This document shows positions 6,021 to 49,271 of a stretch of DNA of 62,521 bases, in pieces. A program made the translations under genes and the position numbers. The notes beneath the pieces are model-generated. The model saw only the letters and a list, made by a program, of their open reading frames with translations. It was not told the origin of the DNA and did not search any database. Numbering within the stretch: position 1 is the first letter of the stretch; each line of letters opens with the position of its first letter. Location: NCBI GenBank assembly GCA_036276035.1, contig DASUCM010000009.1, positions 1 through 62,521 on the forward strand, read 5' to 3'. The stretch comes from Candidatus Limnocylindria bacterium (GTDB lineage: Bacteria; Chloroflexota; Limnocylindria; P2-11E).

Positions 6021-6638
6021 CTAGGCAGACAGGGCGCGCGCGAGCACCGCGACGCCCAGCAACACGACGATGAGGCTCCCGCCCAGCGAGGCCCAGGCGC
6101 GCGCCGAGGGGGGCAGCCGGCCGTGAAGAGCGCCTGAGATCGTTGCGAGCAGGAGCTGCCAGGCCGCGGACGCCGTGAACACGCCGAGCGCGAACGCCGG
6201 GACGCTCTGGATGGCCGTGCCTCCGAGTCCGATGGCGATCGCGACGAAGTACCCGAGCGTCGCAGGGTTCGCGGCGGTGAGGCCGGCGAAACGGAGGTAG
6301 GTGGATACGAGGTCACGTGTGGCGGCGGTCGCCGTGGGCTGCTCCGCCGCCGCCCGGCGGGAGCGGACCGCGGTCCACATCCCGATCACGACGAGCGTGA
6401 CGCCCGTGGCGAGCTGGAGCGTGCGCTCGGCTCCCGCGAGCATCGCCGACACCGCGGAGCCGAGGAGGAGCGCCGACAGGGCGTAGCCGAAGTCCACGCT
6501 CGCGGCGCCGAGCCCCGCGGCCGCCGCGGGGGCGAAGCCGCGGCGCAGGCCGGTGGTCATGATGAGCGTGGCGATCGCGCCCGGCGGCATGGCGATCGCG
6601 AGGCCCGCGAGCGCGCCGGTCGCGAACGACTCGATCAG
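6021..6638 (-). CDS. LysE-family amino-acid/metabolite exporter
   Basis: Six-TM pattern; N-terminal LIESFATGALAGLAIAMPPGAIATLIM resembles the LysE/RhtB N-terminus. The start is assigned to CTG 6638-6636 (CTGA overlap with the upstream stop) because no canonical start lies in the 28 codons upstream. See finding. Confidence 0.7.
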   Translation of the reverse strand: MIESFATGALAGLAIAMPPGAIATLIMTTGLRRGFAPAAAAGLGAASVDFGYALSALLLGSAVSAMLAGAERTLQLATGVTLVVIGMWTAVRSRRAAAEQPTATAATRDLVSTYLRFAGLTAANPATLGYFVAIAIGLGGTAIQSVPAFALGVFTASAAWQLLLATISGALHGRLPPSARAWASLGGSLIVVLLGVAVLARALSA

Positions 6639-17704: not shown

Positions 17705-19558
17705 ATGAAGGAGGACATCCAGCGCCTCGAGTACGACGTCGTCGTGATCGGCGCAGGCGGCGCCGGGATCCGCGCCGCGATCGAGGCGAGCGCGCAGGGC
17801 GCGCGGACCGCGCTCATCTGCAAGTCGCTGTTCGGCAAGGCGCACACCGTGATGGCCGAGGGCGGCATCGCCGCCGCGCTGCGCAACGTGTGGAAGGAGG
17901 ACTCCTGGCAGGTCCACTTCCGCGACACCATGCGGGGCGGGAAGCTCATGAACAACTGGCGCATGGCGCAGCTTCACGCGCAGGAGGCGCCGGACCGCGT
18001 CCTCGAGCTCGAGGAGTGGGGCGCGCTCTTCGACCGCACGAAGGACGGGCTCATCCTGCAGCGCGACTTCGGCGGCCACCGCTACGCGCGGCTCGCGCAC
18101 GTCGGCGACCGGACCGGCCTCGAGATGATCCGCACGCTGCAGGACCACGCGGTGCACAAGGGCATCGACGTCCACATGGAGTGCACGATCCAGCGTCTGC
18201 TCCTCGCCGACGGCGCGGTGAGCGGCTGCGTCGGCTACTGGCGCCAGACCGGCGCGCTCGTCGCGTTCGGCGCGAAGGCGATCGTCCTCGCGACGGGCGG
18301 CGTCGGCAAGGCCTGGAAGATCACGTCGAACTCCTGGGAGTACACGGGCGACGGGATCGCGCTCGCGCTCGACGCCGGCGCCGACCTCATCGACATGGAG
18401 ATGACGCAGTTCCATCCGACCGGGATGGTCTGGCCGCCGAGCGTGCGCGGCATCCTCGTCACGGAGGGAGTGCGCGGTGACGGCGGCACGCTCAAGAACA
18501 GCGCCGGCCGCCGCTTCATGTTCGACTACATCCCCGAGTTCTTCCGCGGCGACACCGCCGACACGGAGGCCGAGGCGGACCGGTGGTACGAGGACAAGAT
18601 CAACAACCGCCGGACCCCGGACCTGCTGCCGCGCGACGAGGTCGCGCGCGCGATCAACTCCGAGGTGAAGGCGGGCCGCGGCACCCCGCACGGCGGCGTG
18701 TACCTCGACATCGCGTCGCGCCGGAGCGCCGAGTACATCCGCCAGCGCCTCCCTTCCATGTACCACCAGTTCAAGGAGCTCGCGGACGTCGACATCACGA
18801 CGACGCCGATGGAGGTCGGCCCGACGCTGCACTACATCATGGGCGGCGTCCGGGTCGAGGCCGACACCGCCGCGACGACGGTGGCCGGCCTCTTCGCGGC
18901 GGGCGAGGTCGCGGCGGGGATGCACGGCGCGAACCGCCTCGGCGGCAACTCGCTCTCGGACCTCCTCGTCTTCGGCCGTCGGGCGGGGCTCGGCGCGGCG
19001 GCGTACGCGGGCAGGCGGGGCGCGGCGCCGTTCGACGACGCCGCGCTCGCTCGCAGCGCCGAGGACATCCTCGCGCCGTTCTCGCGGCCGGACGCCGGCG
19101 AGGATCCGTACCAGCTCCACGAGCGCCTGCAGAGCACGATGCAGGCGAACGTCGGCATCGTGCGGACCGAGGACGAGCTGGCGAAGGCTCTCGCCGACAT
19201 CGAGCGGCTCCGCGCGCGCGCCGAGAAGGTGCGCGTCCGGGGAACACGCGTGTACAACCCCGGCTGGCACCTCGCGCTCGACCTCCGCTCGATGCTCACC
19301 TGCGCGGAGGCGGTCACGCGCTCCGCGCTCCGGCGGACCGAGAGCCGCGGTGGCCACACCCGCGCGGACTTCCCGAAGACGGACAAGGAGTGGGGCCGGA
19401 AGAACATCGTCGTCAGGCGCGGGGACGGCGGCCTCGTGCTCGCCGACGAGCCGATCCCGCAGCCGCCGCCCGAGCTGCAGGCGCTGCTCGGCGACGACCT
19501 GCCGACAGCGGCGCCGGTCACGCCGGCGCCCGCGCGCGAGGTGGTCCCGACGACATGA
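17705..19558 (+). CDS. sdhA: succinate dehydrogenase/fumarate reductase flavoprotein subunit
   Basis: 617 aa: YDVVVIGAGGAGIRAA.., HTVMAEGG, HPTG, RGDGG. Confidence 0.95.
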   Translation: MKEDIQRLEYDVVVIGAGGAGIRAAIEASAQGARTALICKSLFGKAHTVMAEGGIAAALRNVWKEDSWQVHFRDTMRGGKLMNNWRMAQLHAQEAPDRVLELEEWGALFDRTKDGLILQRDFGGHRYARLAHVGDRTGLEMIRTLQDHAVHKGIDVHMECTIQRLLLADGAVSGCVGYWRQTGALVAFGAKAIVLATGGVGKAWKITSNSWEYTGDGIALALDAGADLIDMEMTQFHPTGMVWPPSVRGILVTEGVRGDGGTLKNSAGRRFMFDYIPEFFRGDTADTEAEADRWYEDKINNRRTPDLLPRDEVARAINSEVKAGRGTPHGGVYLDIASRRSAEYIRQRLPSMYHQFKELADVDITTTPMEVGPTLHYIMGGVRVEADTAATTVAGLFAAGEVAAGMHGANRLGGNSLSDLLVFGRRAGLGAAAYAGRRGAAPFDDAALARSAEDILAPFSRPDAGEDPYQLHERLQSTMQANVGIVRTEDELAKALADIERLRARAEKVRVRGTRVYNPGWHLALDLRSMLTCAEAVTRSALRRTESRGGHTRADFPKTDKEWGRKNIVVRRGDGGLVLADEPIPQPPPELQALLGDDLPTAAPVTPAPAREVVPTT

Positions 19559-20343
19559 CCGAGGTGAAGATGAAGGTCTGGCGCGGCGACCGCGAGGGCG
19601 GCGAGTTCACCGAGTACCTCGTGCCCTCCGACGAGGGCATGGTCGTCCTCGACGTCATCCACCGCATCCAGGCGCTGCGCGCGCCGGATCTCGCGGTGCG
19701 TTGGAACTGCAAGGCCGGGAAGTGCGGCTCGTGCAGCGCCGAGATCAACGGCGCGCCGCGGCTCATGTGCATGACGCGCATGAACACGTTCGAGCCAGGC
19801 GAGGAGATCACCGTCTCGCCGCTCAAGACGTTCCCGGTGATCCGCGACCTCGTCACCGACGTCTCCTTCAACTACGAGAAGGCGAAGACGATCCCCGCGT
19901 TCACGCCGCGCCCGAAGGAGGCCGACGGGACCAGGCGCATGTATCAGGAGGAGGTCGACCGGGTCCAGGAGTTCCACAAGTGCATCGAGTGCTTCCTCTG
20001 CCAGAACGTCTGCCACGTCATCCGCGACCACGAGGAGAACAAGCGGTCGTTCTCGGGCCCGCGCCTCTTCGTTCGGCTCGCGGCGCTCGAGATGCACCCG
20101 CTCGACACGAACGACCGCCTCGAGCTCATCCGTGCGAAACAGGGCCTCGGCTTCTGCAACATCACGAAGTGCTGCACCGAGGTGTGCCCCGAGCACATCA
20201 AGATCACCGACAACGCGATCATCCCATTGAAGGAGCGCGTCGTGACCGAGTTCTACGACCCGCTCGCGTGGGTGAAGCGGAAGGTGATGGGTCAGCGCCC
20301 GACGGCGCCCGGCCGCGGCGAGCCGGAGCCTCCGTCCGCCTGA
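19555..20343 (+). CDS. sdhB: succinate dehydrogenase iron-sulfur subunit
   Basis: ATGA overlap with sdhA. CKAGKCGSCSAEING.., CIECFLCQNVC, CTEVCP. Confidence 0.95.
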   Translation: MTEVKMKVWRGDREGGEFTEYLVPSDEGMVVLDVIHRIQALRAPDLAVRWNCKAGKCGSCSAEINGAPRLMCMTRMNTFEPGEEITVSPLKTFPVIRDLVTDVSFNYEKAKTIPAFTPRPKEADGTRRMYQEEVDRVQEFHKCIECFLCQNVCHVIRDHEENKRSFSGPRLFVRLAALEMHPLDTNDRLELIRAKQGLGFCNITKCCTEVCPEHIKITDNAIIPLKERVVTEFYDPLAWVKRKVMGQRPTAPGRGEPEPPSA

Positions 20344-20510
20344 GCTCGCGGCGCGCCTTCGTCCTTGCCGCTGGCGCCGTCCTCGCCGTCGCCACCGTCG
20401 CCCTCGTCATCCGTCCGGCGTTAGAACGCGGTGGTGCGGGTGAACTCCTGCTGATCTTCGGCTTCTTCGGCGCCGTCCTGCTGTTCGAACGCTGGCTGCG
20501 CACCCGGTAG
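20340..20510 (+). CDS. 56-aa two-TM peptide downstream of sdhB (candidate)
   Basis: LSSRRAFVLAAGAVLAVATVALVIRPALERGGAGELLLIFGFFGAVLLFERWLRTR. There is no ATG/GTG/TTG inside the ORF. CTG 20340 overlaps the sdhB stop (CTGA). The nearest canonical in-frame start is GTG 20268, inside sdhB. Confidence 0.35.
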   Translation: MSSRRAFVLAAGAVLAVATVALVIRPALERGGAGELLLIFGFFGAVLLFERWLRTR

Positions 20511-33168: not shown

Positions 33169-34068
33169 ATGCGCCGCTTCCTCCCGACGCTCGTGATCCT
33201 CGCGTTCCTCGTCTCGGCCTGCGGCGGAGGAGGCGCCCCGAGCGGCATGACCACGATCCGCATCGGCTCGACGAACTTCACCGAGCAGCTCATCGTGGGT
33301 GAGCTGTACGCGCAGGTCCTCGAGGCGAACGGCTACAAGGTCGAACGCAAGTTCAACCTCGGCGCGCGCGAGGTCGTCGTGCCGGCCCTCGAGTCCGGCC
33401 AGATCGATCTCGAGGTCGACTACCTCGCGACGCTGCTCGCGTTCCTCGACAAGAACGCGACCGGCTCGACCGACGCGGCGACGACGGCGAAGACGCTCGA
33501 CGAGAAGCTCCGGGCGAGGAACCTCGTCCAGTTCGACTTCGCGCCGGCCGTCGACCAGAACGGCATCGTCGTCACGAAGGAGACCGCGACGCGTCTGAGC
33601 CTCAAGAAGATCAGCGACCTCGCTCCGGTCGCGAAGGACCTCACCTTCGGCGGTCCGCCCGAGTGCCCGAACCGCGAGTTCTGCGCCCTCGGCCTCGAGA
33701 AGGTGTACGGCATCAAGTTCAAGACGTTCCGTCCGCTCGACGTCGGCGGCCCGCTCACCGTCACCGCGCTCGAGGGGAAGCAGATCGACGTGGCGCTGCT
33801 CTTCACCAGCGACGCCGTCATCGCCGTGAAGGGCTTCGTGCTCCTCGAGGACGACAAGAAGCTCCAGCTCTCCGACAACATCGTCCCGATCGTGCGCAAG
33901 GACGTCGCGGACAAGGGCGGCAGCGACCTGCGGACCCGCGTGAACGAGGTGAGCAGGAAGCTGACGACGGCGGAGCTCACCGAGCTGAACAAGCAGGTGG
34001 GCGTCGACAAGAAGGATCCGAAGGACGTCGCGCGGGAGTGGCTGAAGAAACAGGGCCTGCTGAGATAG
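33169..34068 (+). CDS. compatible-solute ABC transporter substrate-binding lipoprotein
   Basis: ATG 33169 preceded by GGAGAAGGAG. MRRFLPTLVILAFLVSACGGG lipobox. ..IGSTNFTEQLIVGELYAQVLE.. typical of OpuCC/OsmX-like binders. Confidence 0.85.
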   Translation: MRRFLPTLVILAFLVSACGGGGAPSGMTTIRIGSTNFTEQLIVGELYAQVLEANGYKVERKFNLGAREVVVPALESGQIDLEVDYLATLLAFLDKNATGSTDAATTAKTLDEKLRARNLVQFDFAPAVDQNGIVVTKETATRLSLKKISDLAPVAKDLTFGGPPECPNREFCALGLEKVYGIKFKTFRPLDVGGPLTVTALEGKQIDVALLFTSDAVIAVKGFVLLEDDKKLQLSDNIVPIVRKDVADKGGSDLRTRVNEVSRKLTTAELTELNKQVGVDKKDPKDVAREWLKKQGLLR

Positions 34069-34478
34069 GCGAGCGTCCCGCGGTCCGGGGCCCGCTCGGC
34101 GGACCTGTCGCCGCCGGGGTCGCCGTCGCCTCGTGGGGCACGTTCGAGAGCGAGGTGTTCGCGGTCCTCGAGGACGGGCAGGTCTGGAACCGGTACTGGG
34201 ACGGCGCTTCGTGGCACGACTGGAAGCCGATGGGCGGCACGTTCACCGGCACGCCCGCGGCGTCCGCGCGCGATGCCGACCGGATCGACGTGCTCGCGAT
34301 CGGTGTGGACGGTGTGCTCCGCCATCGGTGGTGGGACGGCGCCGTGTGGGTGCCCTGGCGTGAGCTCGAGGGAGCGTCCTCTGACGCCGCGACCGTGTCG
34401 TGCTCGTGGGTCGGCGGCGAGCTGCGGATCTTCATCGTCGATGCGGCCGCCATGGTGTGGTGCGTCATCCGGCGCTGA
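34069..34478 (+). CDS. Trp-rich beta-propeller-repeat (DUF346/tectonin-like) fragment; start undefined
   Basis: About 2.5 repeats (ASWG..VFAVLEDGQVWNRYWDGASWHDWKPMGG / ..IDVLAIGVDGVLRHRWWDGAVWVPWRELEG / ..CSWVGGELRIFIV..). The first canonical in-frame start (GTG 34155) lies inside repeat 1. Confidence 0.3.
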
Positions 34479-44612: not shown

Positions 44613-44643
44613 GCTACTTCGCTTCGCTCAGTAGCTTCGTGTA
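44613..44643. repeat. 31-bp direct repeat, copy B (covers the last 9 codons plus stop of the 44614..46266 gene)
   Basis: Identical to 44535-44565. The reverse strand reads ..YTKLLSEAK-stop. Confidence 0.9.
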
Positions 44644-46266
44644 GTCCTTGATCGTGTAGCGGAAGTCGTCCTTCTCGTTCTCGAGCGTGCGCACGATGAG
44701 CCGCATCGTCTTGTTCACGGCCTCCATGCGCGACGTCACGGCCTTGTCGTTCTGGAGCACCGTGTTCAGGTCGTATGCCTTCGCCGACCTGAACAGCATC
44801 CGGAACATCTCCATCTCCTCGTGGAGCGTCGCGGGCTTGTCCTGCGCCTTCTGGTAGTTCGCCCACATCTTGTCGACGCCCTTCGCCTCGATGGTGTCGA
44901 GCCAGGCCCGCTCGCTCTTGTCGTCGACCGCGCGGTACGAGTTGTAGACGATCTCTTTCGTGCCGGCCGGGGTGCGGCCGACCATGAGGCGGGCCATGAA
45001 CTCGTCGATGTCCATCCGATCGACGACGACGTCCTCGTCGAAGTTGCGCTTGATGAGGAACGTCGCGTGGATGCGCGCGGGCTCCATCGGGTTCGTGAAG
45101 ACGCGCTCCTTCGGGAAGACCGTCGTGATGTCGAGCATCGCCCGAGTGTTCTCGAACGCGAAGAAGCGGCCGATGGTCGTCCGCAGCTCGTTGTCGTCCA
45201 TCTTGTCGAACGGCGCCTTGCCCTTCAGCTGCGTGAAGACCTTGTCGATCGTCGGTGCGTGCTCCTGCAGGAATTCCGGTGAGACATCGGGCGCGTTCTC
45301 GAGCCGCGACCGCACCATGTCGAATGCCGCCTGGGGGAAGTTCTCGACGAGGTTCGAGCGCAGGTAGAAGACCTTCTCCGAGGTGTACGCGTACGCCTCG
45401 GGGTGGTCGATGTCGAGGTCCTTCGCGGCGACGGTGATCTCCGCGTCGTCGAGCCCGCGGCCGATCACGGTGTTCGAGGAGCCCTTGTGCTCCTCGAGCC
45501 AGCGATAGCACTGGTACCCGCGAGCGACCTCCGTGCCGCCCTCGAGCACGCGGGCGGGGGAGACGCGCCTGCCGTCCTTCGTCGGGTAGGCGTAGCGCAC
45601 GTAGACCCAGTCGTCGGAGTGAAAGCGCGTGTTCGGGAACTCCATGAGCCCGTACGTGCTCGTCGACTTCCCCGTGCCGGTCGGGGCGATGTACAGGACG
45701 CCCTTGCCGTCCTTCGTGACCACCGCGCCGTGGATCGAGTGGATGCCGTAGTCGACCGCGAGCTTGCGGCCGACGGCGCCGAGCACCCAGCTCTTCAGCT
45801 GTCCGTAGTAGGAGGTGTTGAAGAAGATGACCGTGTCGTTCTGCCGGCTGTAGTACGCGGCCTCGGCCTCCGTCGCGACGCGACCGAGCGCGACGACGAG
45901 CACGTCGGGCGTCTCCGCGATCTTGATCCCGGTGCGGTCGACCCACTCCTTCGGCGAGAACCAGTTGTCCCGCCAGTAGCCGATGAGGTGCTCGCTGTTC
46001 GTGATCGCCCGCACGCGCAGGCCGTGGATGACGACGTCGTGGCTGTAGGTCGGCTGCTTCGCACCGGCGATGTGCTCGAACGAGCTCGCGAGGAGCCGCT
46101 TGAACAGGCCGGGCTTCTGGTCGACGGTCTTGTCGTGCACCGGCGTGCGGCCCTTCTGCCGGGTGATCGTGTTCTTCGCGCCGATCGGCGTGCCGGGCCA
46201 CTCCGGTGCCATCGCGTCGTCGGACGTCGGGAACGAGTACAGGTCCTTCTTCTCAGCGATCGCCAA
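44614..46266 (-). CDS. HPr-kinase/PEP-carboxykinase-superfamily P-loop protein, function unknown
   Basis: TTG 46266 is preceded by GGGGAGG. NTSYYGQLKSW, IHGAVVTKDGKGVLYIAPTGTGKSTSTYGL and RFHSDDWVYV line up with the PEPCK (T.YGGEMKK / FFGLSGTGKTTLS / IGDDEHGW) and HprK (HGVLV..GVGVLI.G.SGVGKSE..L..G..LVADD) cores as I remember them. K/N/D/E/Y/F-rich composition. Confidence 0.75.
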   Translation of the reverse strand: MAIAEKKDLYSFPTSDDAMAPEWPGTPIGAKNTITRQKGRTPVHDKTVDQKPGLFKRLLASSFEHIAGAKQPTYSHDVVIHGLRVRAITNSEHLIGYWRDNWFSPKEWVDRTGIKIAETPDVLVVALGRVATEAEAAYYSRQNDTVIFFNTSYYGQLKSWVLGAVGRKLAVDYGIHSIHGAVVTKDGKGVLYIAPTGTGKSTSTYGLMEFPNTRFHSDDWVYVRYAYPTKDGRRVSPARVLEGGTEVARGYQCYRWLEEHKGSSNTVIGRGLDDAEITVAAKDLDIDHPEAYAYTSEKVFYLRSNLVENFPQAAFDMVRSRLENAPDVSPEFLQEHAPTIDKVFTQLKGKAPFDKMDDNELRTTIGRFFAFENTRAMLDITTVFPKERVFTNPMEPARIHATFLIKRNFDEDVVVDRMDIDEFMARLMVGRTPAGTKEIVYNSYRAVDDKSERAWLDTIEAKGVDKMWANYQKAQDKPATLHEEMEMFRMLFRSAKAYDLNTVLQNDKAVTSRMEAVNKTMRLIVRTLENEKDDFRYTIKDYTKLLSEAK

Positions 46267-46297
46267 GCAGCGCCTCCCCTACGTGTTCGTCGAAAGT

Positions 46298-47449
46298 CTA
46301 GGGAGCATGGGCTGCGGCCGCTCCGCGGACGGCCGAGACGATGACCAGGCTCACGACGCCCGCGATCGGGAGCGCCAGCGCTGCGCTCACGAGGTAGGGC
46401 AGGAGCGGGTCGGCGTCGTGGAGCGCTCCCGCGAGGATGCTGCCCCCGCCCGCGCCCGCGGTGTACGCGAGCTGGAACGCGGCGTAGCCCACGGAGAGCC
46501 GGGCCGGTGGCAGCACACGTTCGATCGCCGCCGCGACGACCGGATTCGCGGCCTGGTTCGCGCCGATGAGCAGCGAGCCGAGCAGCAGCACGGGCAGCGC
46601 GCCGGTGCCCAGGACGAGCGCCGTGCTGCCGACCGCGACGAGGAGCGAGGCGCCGACGACCGCCGGGACGACGCCGACCTGATCCGAGAGCCGTCCCGCC
46701 GCTGCGGAGAACGCGGCGGACCCGAGCGAGACCGCCGCGACGAGCACGCCGATCACCTCCAGGGGTGCGCGCGCGACGTCGCGCAGGTAGACGGTGAAGA
46801 GCGGGGTCGGCAGATATGCGAGCGCGCCCGCGAGCGGCGCGAGCCCGAGCAGCGCCCAGAAGCGGCCGGAGAGCCTGCCGCCACGGAGCGTCTCTCGCGG
46901 CGCGGTGGCCGAGATCAGCGCGTCGCAGATGAGCGAGAGCCCGAAGAAGAGCACGGCACCCGCGAAGGGCGCGCGCAGGCCGTACGCGCCCGCGATGACG
47001 CCCGAGAGCGGCGACGCGAGGATGATCCCGAAGAAGAACGAGCCGTAGACGACGCCCATCGACGCGCCGAGGCGCTCCCGCGGCACGCTCGCCGCCAGGT
47101 GCGAGGTCATGATCGGCAGGCCGGCGATCGCGCCCCAGTACAACGCCGACCCGATGAACGCGAAGCGCCAGTCCTGCAGCGGCAGGAAGGCCGCGGCGCC
47201 GAGCATCCCGCTCGCCGCGGAGACCATGAGCATCGGCTTGCGTCCGACGCGGTCCGCGAGGAAGCCGGCAGGGAGCACGCCGAGCGCGCCGGCGATCGTG
47301 CCGACGCCGATGACCAGGCCGATGTCGGTGCCGGTCGCGCCGAGCGAGTCGAGGAACAGCGAGATGACCGGCGCGATGAGGCCGAAGCCGATGCCCCAGA
47401 GCAGCTGCGCGCCCGCAAGGAGCCGGGTGTCGCGGGTCAGGCCGCTCAG
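46298..47449 (-). CDS. MFS transporter
   Basis: The track ORF starts at GTG 47278, inside the loop motif (LPAGFLADRVGRKP). Upstream in the same frame I read an intact TM1/TM2 (TRLLAGAQLLWGIGFGLIAPVISLFLDSLGATGTDIGLVIGVGTIAGALG). Start assigned to CTG 47449 (CTGA overlap with the M20 stop). Confidence 0.7.
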   Translation of the reverse strand: MSGLTRDTRLLAGAQLLWGIGFGLIAPVISLFLDSLGATGTDIGLVIGVGTIAGALGVLPAGFLADRVGRKPMLMVSAASGMLGAAAFLPLQDWRFAFIGSALYWGAIAGLPIMTSHLAASVPRERLGASMGVVYGSFFFGIILASPLSGVIAGAYGLRAPFAGAVLFFGLSLICDALISATAPRETLRGGRLSGRFWALLGLAPLAGALAYLPTPLFTVYLRDVARAPLEVIGVLVAAVSLGSAAFSAAAGRLSDQVGVVPAVVGASLLVAVGSTALVLGTGALPVLLLGSLLIGANQAANPVVAAAIERVLPPARLSVGYAAFQLAYTAGAGGGSILAGALHDADPLLPYLVSAALALPIAGVVSLVIVSAVRGAAAAHAP

Positions 47450-48648
47450 GCGGTGCCCTTCACCACACCTGCGCGCCGGCGCTCCGCGAACTCGGCCTTC
47501 GCTCGCGCGAGGAGCTGCGGGTCTGCGAGGCAGTCGACCGCGAGCAGCGCGAGCGCCTTCGCCGCGGCGAGCGCGTTCGCGTGCGCTTCAGGCGTCGCGG
47601 CCGCGTCGCGGAACGCCGTGGAGTGACCGGGCGTGCCTTCGGGCGCGATCCCGATGTACGGGTGCGCGGCCGGGACGATCTGGCTCACGTTGCCCATGTC
47701 GGTCGAGCCCATGCGCTCATCGTCCGTGGTCGGCGTGACCTCGATCCCGAAGGACCGGACGTGCTCGGCCCAGCGCTCGGCGAGCGGCGTCGAGGGGACC
47801 ATGTTCTCGTAGCCGGAGTTCTCGTTCACGGTGACGACGACGCGCGTGCCGGTCGCGGCCGCTGCGCCCTCCGCGCAGGCGATGAACCGCCGCAGGACCT
47901 CCTTCTGGTACGTGTGGTCCCGCGCACGCACGCTGAACTTCCCCGCCGCGTACTCCGGGATGATGTTCGCCGCGCTCCCTCCGGACGTGATGATCCCGTG
48001 CACGCGCGCGTCCGGCTTCAGCTGCTGCCGCATCGCGTTCACCGCGTTGAAGGTCTGGATGAGCCCGTCGAGCGCGTTGATGCCGCGGTCCGGCTGCGCG
48101 GCCGCGTGCGCGGCCTTGCCGTAGAACTCGAGCTCGACGCGGTTCGACGCGAGCGAGGTGCGCCCCGAGAGCGTGCGCGAGCTCGGGTGGACCATCATCG
48201 CGGCGTCCACGCCCTCGAACCCGCCGGCGCGGACGAGCGCGACCTTCCCGCCGCCGCCCTCCTCCGCCGGGGTCCCGATCGCGGCGATGCTGCCGGCGAG
48301 CTCGCCGAGCACCTCGCGCGCGCCGATCGCCGCGGCGGTCCCGATCATCGCGATGAGGTTGTGGCCGCAGGCGTGGCCGATGTCGGGGAGCGCGTCGTAC
48401 TCCGCGAGGATCGCGACCGTCGGCCCGCCGGCGCGGCCCTTCGCGTCAGCGCGGTAGGACGTCTCGAGGCCCTTGTACGGGCGCTCGACCTCGAAGCCAC
48501 GCTCGGCCAGGAACGCCGCGATCCGTCCCGACGCGCGGTGCTCCTGATAGGCGACCTCCGGATCTCTGTGCAGCGCGAGCGAGAGCTCGACGAGCGCGTC
48601 GCGCTCCTTGTCGATGCGCGCGATGACGCGCGAGCGCAGCTCCTTCAT
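47446..48648 (-). CDS. M20-family amidohydrolase/peptidase (PM20D2/AbgB-like)
   Basis: 400 aa. ..EYDALPDIGHACGHNLI.., ..GTPAEEGGGGK.., ..FYGKAAHAAAQP... ATGA overlap with the upstream regulator. Confidence 0.9.
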   Translation of the reverse strand: MKELRSRVIARIDKERDALVELSLALHRDPEVAYQEHRASGRIAAFLAERGFEVERPYKGLETSYRADAKGRAGGPTVAILAEYDALPDIGHACGHNLIAMIGTAAAIGAREVLGELAGSIAAIGTPAEEGGGGKVALVRAGGFEGVDAAMMVHPSSRTLSGRTSLASNRVELEFYGKAAHAAAQPDRGINALDGLIQTFNAVNAMRQQLKPDARVHGIITSGGSAANIIPEYAAGKFSVRARDHTYQKEVLRRFIACAEGAAAATGTRVVVTVNENSGYENMVPSTPLAERWAEHVRSFGIEVTPTTDDERMGSTDMGNVSQIVPAAHPYIGIAPEGTPGHSTAFRDAAATPEAHANALAAAKALALLAVDCLADPQLLARAKAEFAERRRAGVVKGTA

Positions 48649-49271
48649 GCGCGCGAGGGTACCGCCTGGTGGCCGTGGAGGAGCGCGACGATGATGCGGT
48701 CGAGCGAGCGGTCCGCTTCCTCGAACAGCGACGCCGCACGTTCGGGATCGAGCGAGCGTCGCCGAGCGATGGTCGCGATCTCGGCCATGAAGCGCGCGCG
48801 GAAGAAGAGGAAGACCTCGGTCGCCTCGCCGAGCGAGAGCTCGCGCCGCTGCGCCTCCACGCCGTACTCGCGGCCGAGCTGTGCGGCCTGGCGCAGGAGC
48901 TCCTCGCGGCCGCGGCCCTCGGTGTCGAGCGCGCCGAGGAGCAGCTGGCTCATGCGCATCCCGCGCTCGCGGAACCAGCGCAGCGACGCTTCATCGAATC
49001 GCGAGTGCCAGTCCTGCTCCGCCATGTCGGAGCGGACCCGGCGGCGGAACTCGGCGGCGACGCGGTCGGGCGGCTCGCCGATCGCCGACAGCGAGCGGTG
49101 CGCCTGCCGCGGCCGCGGCAGCATCGCGGCGATCGTCTCGGCGCGGAAGCGCCGGTGACCGCCGGGGGTGCGCAGGAGCTCCACCTTGCCCGCGTCGGCC
49201 CAGCGCCGCAGCGTGTCCGGGTCGACGCCGAGCATCCGGCTCGCGGCGCCGAGCGTGAGCCACTCTCCCAA
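48645..49271 (-). CDS. MerR/excisionase-type HTH regulator with an uncharacterised C-terminal domain
   Basis: WLTLGAASRMLGVDPDTLRRWADAGKVELLRTPGGHRRF at the N-terminus. Confidence 0.8.
   Translation of the reverse strand: MGEWLTLGAASRMLGVDPDTLRRWADAGKVELLRTPGGHRRFRAETIAAMLPRPRQAHRSLSAIGEPPDRVAAEFRRRVRSDMAEQDWHSRFDEASLRWFRERGMRMSQLLLGALDTEGRGREELLRQAAQLGREYGVEAQRRELSLGEATEVFLFFRARFMAEIATIARRRSLDPERAASLFEEADRSLDRIIVALLHGHQAVPSRA

Follow-up and report, generated by a model that had tools for sequence, protein, structure and literature searches.

We asked where translation begins in a gene that reads as a complete major facilitator superfamily (MFS) transporter and has no canonical start codon (ATG, GTG or TTG) ahead of its first two transmembrane helices (TM1 and TM2). 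The gene lies on the minus strand of a stretch of 62,521 nucleotides (nt) of the Limnocylindria contig DASUCM010000009.1. This whole stretch is called the window below, and its MFS locus is labelled WIN in comparisons. The source organism, an uncultured soil bacterium, falls in or near Candidatus Limnocylindria (Chloroflexota), with ~72% GC. An earlier reading, made from the letters of the window alone (the sequence-only reading), had proposed that the MFS protein starts at a CTG that overlaps the stop codon of an upstream M20-family amidohydrolase gene in the arrangement CTGA. Weak initiation at this CUG (47449–47447), coupled to termination of M20 translation, is the best reading of the data presented here, and we give it a probability of roughly 0.6. 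The features of the locus are as follows.

46298–47449, minus strand: full-length coding sequence of the DHA1-like MFS transporter, 383 codons plus TAG at 46298–46300 (Pfam, NCBIfam, hydropathy, homologues)
47447–47449, minus strand: CTG, proposed MFS initiation codon, in a 4-nt CTGA overlap with the M20 stop (sequence, codon log-odds switch, clade conservation)
47446–47448, minus strand: TGA, stop codon of the M20 amidohydrolase (listing of open reading frames, translation)
47438–47440, minus strand: second in-frame CTG, an alternative start candidate (aligned with the TTG start of L005, L006 and L009–L011; not conserved as a near-cognate codon)
47279–47437, minus strand: N-terminal coding region with TM1, the loop and most of TM2 (ratio of nonsynonymous to synonymous substitution rates, dN/dS; codon log-odds)
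47276–47278, minus strand: GTG, first canonical start triplet, within motif A (GFLADRVGRKP), the choice of gene callers (326-amino-acid product)
47456–47463, minus strand: GTGAAGGG, purine-rich stretch resembling a Shine-Dalgarno (SD) sequence, which ends 6 nt upstream of the CTG and also codes for the M20 C-terminal V-K-G
47446–48648, minus strand: M20-family amidohydrolase gene, 400 amino acids, the upstream partner in the proposed coupling (Peptidase_M20, M20_dimer, TIGR01891)
47588–47590, minus strand: upstream in-frame TGA that bounds the MFS frame (sequence)

On the minus strand, the M20 frame ends ...GGT GTG GTG AAG GGC ACC GCC TGA, with the TGA at 47448–47446. The MFS frame, one base upstream, reads ...GGG CAC CGC CTG AGC GGC CTG ACC CGC GAC ACC CGG..., and its first CTG, at 47449–47447, shares three bases with the M20 stop. 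The MFS frame is open from 47587, downstream of the in-frame TGA at 47590–47588, and neither the listing of open reading frames nor the translated frame contained an ATG, GTG or TTG between that TGA and GTG 47278. The latter is the first canonical start of the frame and codes for the V in GVLPAGFLADRVGRKP, which is motif A of the MFS and lies in the loop between TM2 and TM3. The coordinates that the sequence-only reading had assigned to the CTG, the M20 stop and this GTG were all correct, as was its statement that the frame holds neither a stop nor a canonical start up to 47521. The second in-frame CTG at 47440–47438, which aligns with the TTG start of some relatives, is an addition to it. At 5.2% canonical triplets per codon, a run of 57 coding codons without any of them is expected with P ~0.05, and their absence by chance from one gene is unimpressive. 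The case exceeds chance because the absence recurs in dozens of independent assemblies.

Started at the CTG, the MFS protein is 383 amino acids long and matches Pfam MFS_1 over residues 12–187 (profile positions 2–179, E = 5.9e-31, 108.1 bits against a cut-off of 33.4). This match takes in the N-terminal helices and motif A. Hydropathy puts TM1 at residues 10–32 and TM2 at residues 43–59, and we place both upstream of residue 58, which is GTG 47278; both helices are present only if the protein starts at the CTG. The 57 codons upstream of the GTG had been described as a normal MFS N-terminus, and the match from residue 12 together with the two helices bears this out. The N-terminal peptides expected of the CTG-started protein are (M)SGLTR / DTR..., LIESFATGALAGLAIAMPPGAIATLIMTTGLR. 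Matches to NCBIfam models of MFS/DHA type all fell far below the equivalog cut-offs, so that no substrate can be assigned. The upstream partner scored 216.6 bits against the TIGR01891 amidohydrolase model (cut-off 153.75) and also matched Pfam Peptidase_M20 and M20_dimer.

Codon usage also locates the beginning of the coding region. Scores in a codon log-odds model trained on 35 long open reading frames of the window, given in bits per 10 codons, were −11 to −23 for the MFS frame before 47449 and +6 to +14 from that position on. The pattern was the reverse in the M20 frame, and the coding signal thus switches frame exactly at 47449. Among the ~60 genes called in the window, only the MFS gene and a LysE-family gene starting at 6638 lacked a canonical start within 25 codons of where coding was estimated to begin. 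Over the 54 codons from CTG 47440 to GTG 47278, dN/dS was 0.07–0.19 against relatives that are 85–93% identical in amino acids there. Judged by these measures, the 57 codons upstream of GTG 47278 are translated and under purifying selection, and the locus as read here codes for a complete 12-TM MFS transporter. The N-terminal codon usage and dN/dS therefore exclude both a pseudogene and a start at GTG 47278.

We then compared the junction across relatives. A protein search yielded 89 MFS homologues, and many of the closest (78–89% identity) had been called at just 307–343 amino acids. These truncated calls (P0004–P0019) begin at differing internal codons; gene callers therefore failed on them too. 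Loci were fetched from genomes (5), from metagenomes (67) and by exact protein look-up (8), and were registered on the conserved motif L-x-R-D/E...LWGxGFG. The M20 stop lay 8 or 5 nt before, or 1 nt into, the conserved Leu codon in 41 loci, always in the phase of a 4-nt overlap. None of these 41 abutting M20–MFS loci had a canonical start between codons −25 and +5, whereas ATG, GTG or TTG was found at codons −6 to 0 in 19 of the 24 loci in which M20 is further away or absent (Fisher P = 3e-12, a value that ignores the phylogenetic kinship of the loci). At 90% nucleotide identity the abutting loci form 26 clusters, all of them in the 4-nt overlap phase and none with a canonical start; the codon over the stop was CTG, ATA, CTA or GTA in every one (26/26). 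This overlap codon stands at −3, −2 or 0, in agreement with where canonical starts are found in the non-abutting relatives; of the latter, those with 100-nt spacers encode a stand-alone MFS protein with a TTG start. In the same operons, the junction between the MerR-like regulator gene and M20 is always canonical (ATGA, GTGA, TTGA or CTGATG).

Conservation of the CTG itself was assessed in the clade whose members are 78–91% identical to the window protein (WIN, L007, L008, L012, L013, L074–L080 and the L005 group). Every member has CTG three codons ahead of the conserved Leu. It overlaps the M20 TGA in WIN, L012, L013, L074, L075 and L077–L080, with GCC, CGC, GGC or AGC as the last M20 codon. 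In L076, L007 and L008, distances of 4, 16 and 31 nt separate the CTG from the M20 stop upstream of it, which is in a different frame; the CTG is kept, and there is still no canonical start. Amino acid conservation begins at the CTG, as L-[ST]-G-[LI]-[TS]-R-D-T-[RK], whereas upstream of it indels occur and the frame differs. In the more distant L043, a CTG occupies the exact position of the TTG in its clear homologues L023 and L024 and of the GTG in L019–L025; here it does not overlap a stop and is preceded by an SD-like GGTGGGA. A near-cognate codon is thus conserved in the MFS gene at or next to the position at which its orthologues have canonical starts (−6 to 0 codons). Clade-wide presence of the CTG, including in the non-overlapping L007, L008 and L076 and in the L005 group, supports the proposal that this codon in the CTGA is the MFS start.

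The same full-length protein could be initiated three codons downstream, at the second CTG (47440–47438). L005, L006 and L009–L011 have TTG exactly there, and gene callers start P0003 at this position; ATG occurs at the equivalent position in L047 and L049, and ATA in L060. Within the clade, however, this Leu codon varies among CTC, CTG, ATC and TTG. It is CTC in L012, L013, L075, L077–L079 and L008 and ATC in L007, L074, L076 and L080, and all of these loci have the upstream CTG, so 47440 is not maintained as a usable start. It also lies 15 nt from the GAAGGG and makes no contact with the stop codon. A start at 47449 is favoured over one at 47440 because the upstream CTG is constant, the downstream Leu codon is variable and conservation begins at the former; we consider the second CTG an unlikely start.

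In deeper clades, the codon over the stop takes other forms. TGA-stop junctions have CTG in 11 clusters; among the clusters with a TAG or TAA stop, 8 have ATA as the overlapping codon of the MFS frame, 5 have CTA and 3 have GTA. CUG or AUA thus occupies the junction in 19 of the 26 clusters, across deep divergence (50–60% protein identity). In these genes ATA accounts for 0.04% of codons and A for 4% of third positions, yet A precedes the TAG or TAA stop in 8 of 15 clusters (P ~3e-8) or, collapsed to lineages, in 5 of 9 (P ~1e-5). AUA therefore appears to be selected at the junction in these clades, and its recurrence suggests that it is used as a start codon there. The base before the stop is C in all 11 TGA clusters and never G, A or T. 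For the seven TGA clusters that came from unbiased scans this gives P = 0.008 if they are independent, a constancy that hints at avoidance of a strong overlapping start. On this comparison, the non-canonical junction is a broader type that includes CTG in CTGA.

Individual loci illustrate the range of forms. ATA lies over the M20 TAG or TAA stop in L002–L004, L014, L021, L027, L028, L031, L045, L056, L057, L059 and L064. GTA takes this place in L029, L069, L046 and L034, and CTA in L032, L038, L044, L052, L054 and L062; in both groups the MFS N-terminus is intact and conserved. L060 has a lone ATA near 1581, 92 nt after M20, at the position of the conserved Leu and of the start in relatives, and no canonical start. 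In L026 (near 1992), M20 ends in tandem in-frame stops, TGA TAA, and the MFS frame reads CTG ATA, two near-cognate codons running; its sisters L045, L057 and L059 read ACA TAA, by which the ATA is kept. L015 (contig SXGR01603663.1, near 60–100) encodes an MFS homologue of 53% identity with an M20-like stop ~27 nt upstream in the other phase, and has neither a canonical nor a near-cognate start before TM1; it is a single short contig and may contain an assembly error. An excess of TAG and TAA stops at the M20–MFS junction relative to the genes of the window was considered and was not significant (P = 0.065).

How might ribosomes use such a junction? We propose that ribosomes finishing M20 would stay on the mRNA and restart one base back, at C-UGA, in a termination-reinitiation or tight translational coupling, with the initiator tRNA reading the near-cognate CUG at 47449–47447 as the MFS start. 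The purine-rich GUGAAGGG 6 nt upstream of the CUG may help as a Shine-Dalgarno sequence. CUG being a poor start, just a small fraction of the terminating ribosomes would restart, so that synthesis of the membrane transporter would depend on translation of M20 and would stay in a low, fixed proportion to that of the soluble enzyme. We infer all three elements of this proposal, namely initiation at the CUG with formylmethionine, dependence on M20 termination and the rationale of low expression. Termination-reinitiation fits the data because loss of canonical starts is confined to loci in which M20 abuts the MFS gene and because the process is reported to need overlaps or very short distances (PMC10666635). 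The correlation between M20 abutment and loss of the canonical start supports coupling indirectly.

Several points weigh against this proposal. The 41 abutting loci amount to 26 clusters, so that counts of loci overstate their independence, and L074–L080 were fetched for their truncated calls and form a biased subset (without them the contrast is 0/35 against 19/23). The CTG of L008 lies 31 nt from the M20 stop, farther than the spacings over which reinitiation has been reported. The conserved V-K-G at the M20 C-terminus dictates the SD-like GAAGGG, which is found also where no MFS gene follows; because it is conserved with or without MFS downstream, an SD role is inseparable from the protein constraint. 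Finally, no single-mismatch near-cognate codon was found near the junction in the CTA and GTA lineages. A near-cognate codon is thus not universally required, and the mechanism may be less dependent on the codon than proposed.

The last point leads to an alternative in which codon identity matters little for restart after M20 termination and ribosomes resume on whichever codon overlaps the stop, be it CUG, AUA, GUA or CUA. Such a restart would account for the CTA and GTA lineages and would agree with the finding that all 26 abutting clusters are in the overlap phase without a canonical start, at positions matching the canonical starts of non-abutting relatives. Precedents can be cited from caliciviruses, in which the restart codon may carry one to three substitutions (review PMC5972666), and from the GTC start in Streptomyces (PMC5472188). 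On the other hand, the enrichment of ATA (8/15 clusters) argues that AUA identity is selected, the CTG is kept in L007, L008, L076 and L043, where it does not overlap the stop, and our literature search gave no bacterial precedent for restart on non-cognate codons. As an account of the window locus, this alternative seems to us improbable, and we retain weak initiation at the CUG coupled to M20 termination.

A wider proposal, put forward tentatively and at less than even odds, combines elements of both. Selection would long have removed canonical starts from the M20–MFS junction of Limnocylindria and related Chloroflexota, and ribosomes would restart there on any overlapping N-U-R codon (CUG, AUA, GUA or CUA). 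This would amount to a bacterial reinitiation with relaxed codon requirements that sets a very low ratio of transporter to enzyme, and the same genome would use CUG at other CTGA overlaps.

Weak start codons have been described in other systems. In reporter data from E. coli, CUG, AUA, AUC and AUU initiate at ~1–2% of AUG (Hecht et al., bioRxiv 10.1101/063800). CUG and AUA, both enriched at the M20–MFS junction, belong to the near-cognate class of that study; those data are reporter measurements, whereas the codons discussed here are fixed at one natural junction. The conserved GTC start of Streptomyces sigR sets protein stoichiometry and shows that a codon with two mismatches can act as a start in high-GC bacteria (PMC5472188). 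Like sigR GTC and E. coli infC AUU, the MFS gene would have a weak true start other than ATG, GTG or TTG that is conserved widely and missed by gene callers, and its product is plausibly kept low relative to its operon partner. Unlike them, its codon is CUG (AUA, GUA or CUA in deeper clades), lies inside a 4-nt stop overlap and is not known to be linked to IF3 or to autoregulation.

The geometry of the junction is that of ATGA and GTGA coupling (Huber et al. 2019, PMC6728339; PMC10666635): the genes are co-directional with little or no sequence between them, three bases are common to stop and start, and the downstream gene is in the same (−1) phase. The difference lies in the restart codon, which here is not a canonical NTG (ATG, GTG or TTG). 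TAG and TAA stops give an overlap codon of the form NTA, which the surveys in PMC6728339 and PMC10666635 treat as impossible or as an annotation error. Termination-reinitiation in caliciviruses and influenza B is similar in that restart occurs at a stop/start overlap and tolerates near-cognate or non-cognate codons. It involves eukaryotic 40S/80S ribosomes and a TURBS (termination upstream ribosome-binding site) element that pairs with 18S rRNA; no equivalent of this element was found at the M20–MFS junction, with no test aimed at it. A literature search for start-codon usage in Limnocylindria or for bacterial CTGA overlaps returned nothing specific. Taken as a single gene, the window locus adds one more case to the known phenomenon of non-canonical start codons. 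At the level of the family, one junction is free of canonical starts across deep divergence, and we found no description of such coupling in the literature searched.

Could the gene instead be decaying, or a product of assembly error, or yield only a truncated 10-TM protein from GTG 47278? Callers do give products of 307–343 amino acids for the window gene and many relatives, and a TTG start could have been lost through one T-to-C change. The reading frame is, however, intact across all relatives, the low dN/dS falls in the very part that would be left untranslated, and the same junction is found in independent assemblies from different samples. The GTG is part of motif A and is not kept as GTG in relatives, which are called from other internal codons, and an MFS protein that lacks TM1 and TM2 would break the 6+6 fold. 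The sequence-only reading had named three findings that would overturn it: a start at GTG 47278, a pseudogene, and a sequencing error hiding a canonical start. The first would delete TM1 and TM2 and leave untranslated codons that show purifying selection and coding usage, the second conflicts with an intact and conserved gene, and the third with a start-less junction in many independent assemblies. We therefore regard these explanations as very unlikely.

Still less probable is a programmed −1 ribosomal frameshift near the end of M20, producing an M20–MFS fusion that needs no start codon. The MFS gene is always in the −1 frame of M20 in abutting loci, its frame is open upstream for 12 to >400 codons, and a fusion is topologically possible (a cytoplasmic enzyme joined to a cytoplasmic MFS N-terminus) and would explain the total lack of canonical starts. 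Against it, no conserved X XXY YYZ slippery heptamer was found in the last 12 M20 codons of 60 loci, nor any conserved RNA structure at or downstream of the junction (RNAalifold consensus −1.8 kcal/mol, no covariation). In L007, L076 and L015 the MFS frame is in another phase or blocked by a stop and still lacks a canonical start, the relatives with 100-nt spacers encode MFS on its own, a Peptidase_M20 domain is fused to MFS in 0 of 89 homologues, and the codon score of the MFS frame is strongly negative upstream of 47449. Three further candidates were rejected: a canonical start hidden by a sequencing error (the same frames and junction occur in L012, L013, L074, L075 and L077–L080), a canonical start far upstream within M20 (none in the window, the nearest in relatives 70–160 codons upstream, with a strongly negative MFS-frame score) and slippage in the ribosomal P site at the stop (on inspection, the last sense codons, GCC, CGC, GGC, AGC, GCA, CAA, ACA, TCC and others, are unable to pair again one base back).

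CTG and ATA are among the possible starts given in NCBI translation table 11. Standard gene callers, limited to ATG, GTG and TTG, truncate the MFS protein by 40–75 residues and remove TM1 and TM2. This affects the window gene and most public relatives (P0004–P0019 and NCBI entries such as P0020). The LysE-family protein described below is also truncated by callers, a 56-amino-acid membrane protein may be missed altogether, and junctions of this kind systematically affect the annotation of Limnocylindria metagenome-assembled genomes. Being deeply conserved, the family is a natural case on which to test how strict start-codon choice is when restart occurs at a stop/start overlap, and it bears on whether weak restart codons fix the stoichiometry of operon products. 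The question is directly testable by reporters because of the clean contrast (0/41 against 19/24) and the always-canonical MerR-to-M20 junction.

The sequence-only reading had pointed to two further CTGA junctions in the window, at 6635–6638 and 20340–20343. In both, the CTG aligned residue for residue with the canonical start of the orthologues.

6021–6638, minus strand: LysE-family exporter, second CTGA case, whose CTG (6638–6636) overlaps the TGA stop of a DUF402 gene (orthologue alignment)
20340–20510, plus strand: 56-amino-acid protein with two TM helices, third CTGA case, downstream of an SdhB-like Fe-S subunit gene (codon score, orthologue alignment)

The LysE gene has no canonical start before TM1. 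Its orthologues (70–74% identity) begin MIESFA(A/T)GALAGLAIAMPPGAIA, with which the window sequence LIESFATGALAGLAIAMPPGAIA aligns residue for residue. The DNA at the start reads CCT GTG ATC in L084, a GTGA junction, CCT CTG ATC in the window and L083, and CCG CTG ATC in L081 and L082. The difference between L084 and the window or L083 is a synonymous change in the last DUF402 codon. The 56-amino-acid frame contains no ATG, GTG or TTG anywhere and scores +21 for codon usage, where the two remaining forward frames score −69 and −81. Members of its family begin MSSRGVF, MTSRGVF or MTARLAF; the window protein aligns with them as LSSRRAF, with CTG 20340 at the first methionine of the orthologues. 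This CTG overlaps the TGA of the SdhB-like gene in an SdhA/SdhB-like pair (17705–19558 and 19555–20343), and the product may be a small membrane subunit or anchor.

A codon-usage screen of junctions in the window returned 13 canonical 4-nt overlaps and two CTGA junctions without a canonical start nearby, 47449 and 6638. The 56-amino-acid case was not flagged, probably through the shortness of its frame. Examples of canonical 4-nt overlaps in the window number about 13–17, and CUG stands in a CTGA overlap at 3 of ~60 genes. The list of junctions of the form NTGA that accompanied the sequence-only reading was largely reproduced by the coordinates of the open reading frames together with this screen. 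An ATAG junction was also seen on the plus strand, where a Trp-rich repeat protein (34065–34478) follows a gene ending at 34068. Canonical GTG candidates for this protein are found only at 34038 (a 31-nt overlap) and 34155, and the codon signal rises near 34125–34155. As a possible AUA start, the ATAG at 34065 is ambiguous: GTG 34155 is plausible, and the codon signal rises only there.

No special tRNA (ARAGORN) or known RNA element (Rfam) was found in the window, and no internal promoter or terminator between M20 and MFS. The two genes belong to a four-gene cluster on the minus strand (44614–49271) that encodes a MerR/BldC-like helix-turn-helix (HTH) protein, the M20 amidohydrolase (TIGR01891), the MFS transporter and a 550-amino-acid protein. 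Its outer members are the following.

48645–49271, minus strand: MerR/BldC-like HTH regulator gene, whose stop overlaps the M20 ATG in a canonical ATGA at 48645–48648 (same gene order in L074 and L079)
44614–46266, minus strand: downstream gene for 550 amino acids, with weak ScmC/HprK-related matches, a conserved neighbour (also in L079 and L080)

The 550-amino-acid gene has a canonical TTG start 31 nt past the MFS stop, and the order MerR, M20, MFS and 550-amino-acid gene recurs in L074, L079 and L080.

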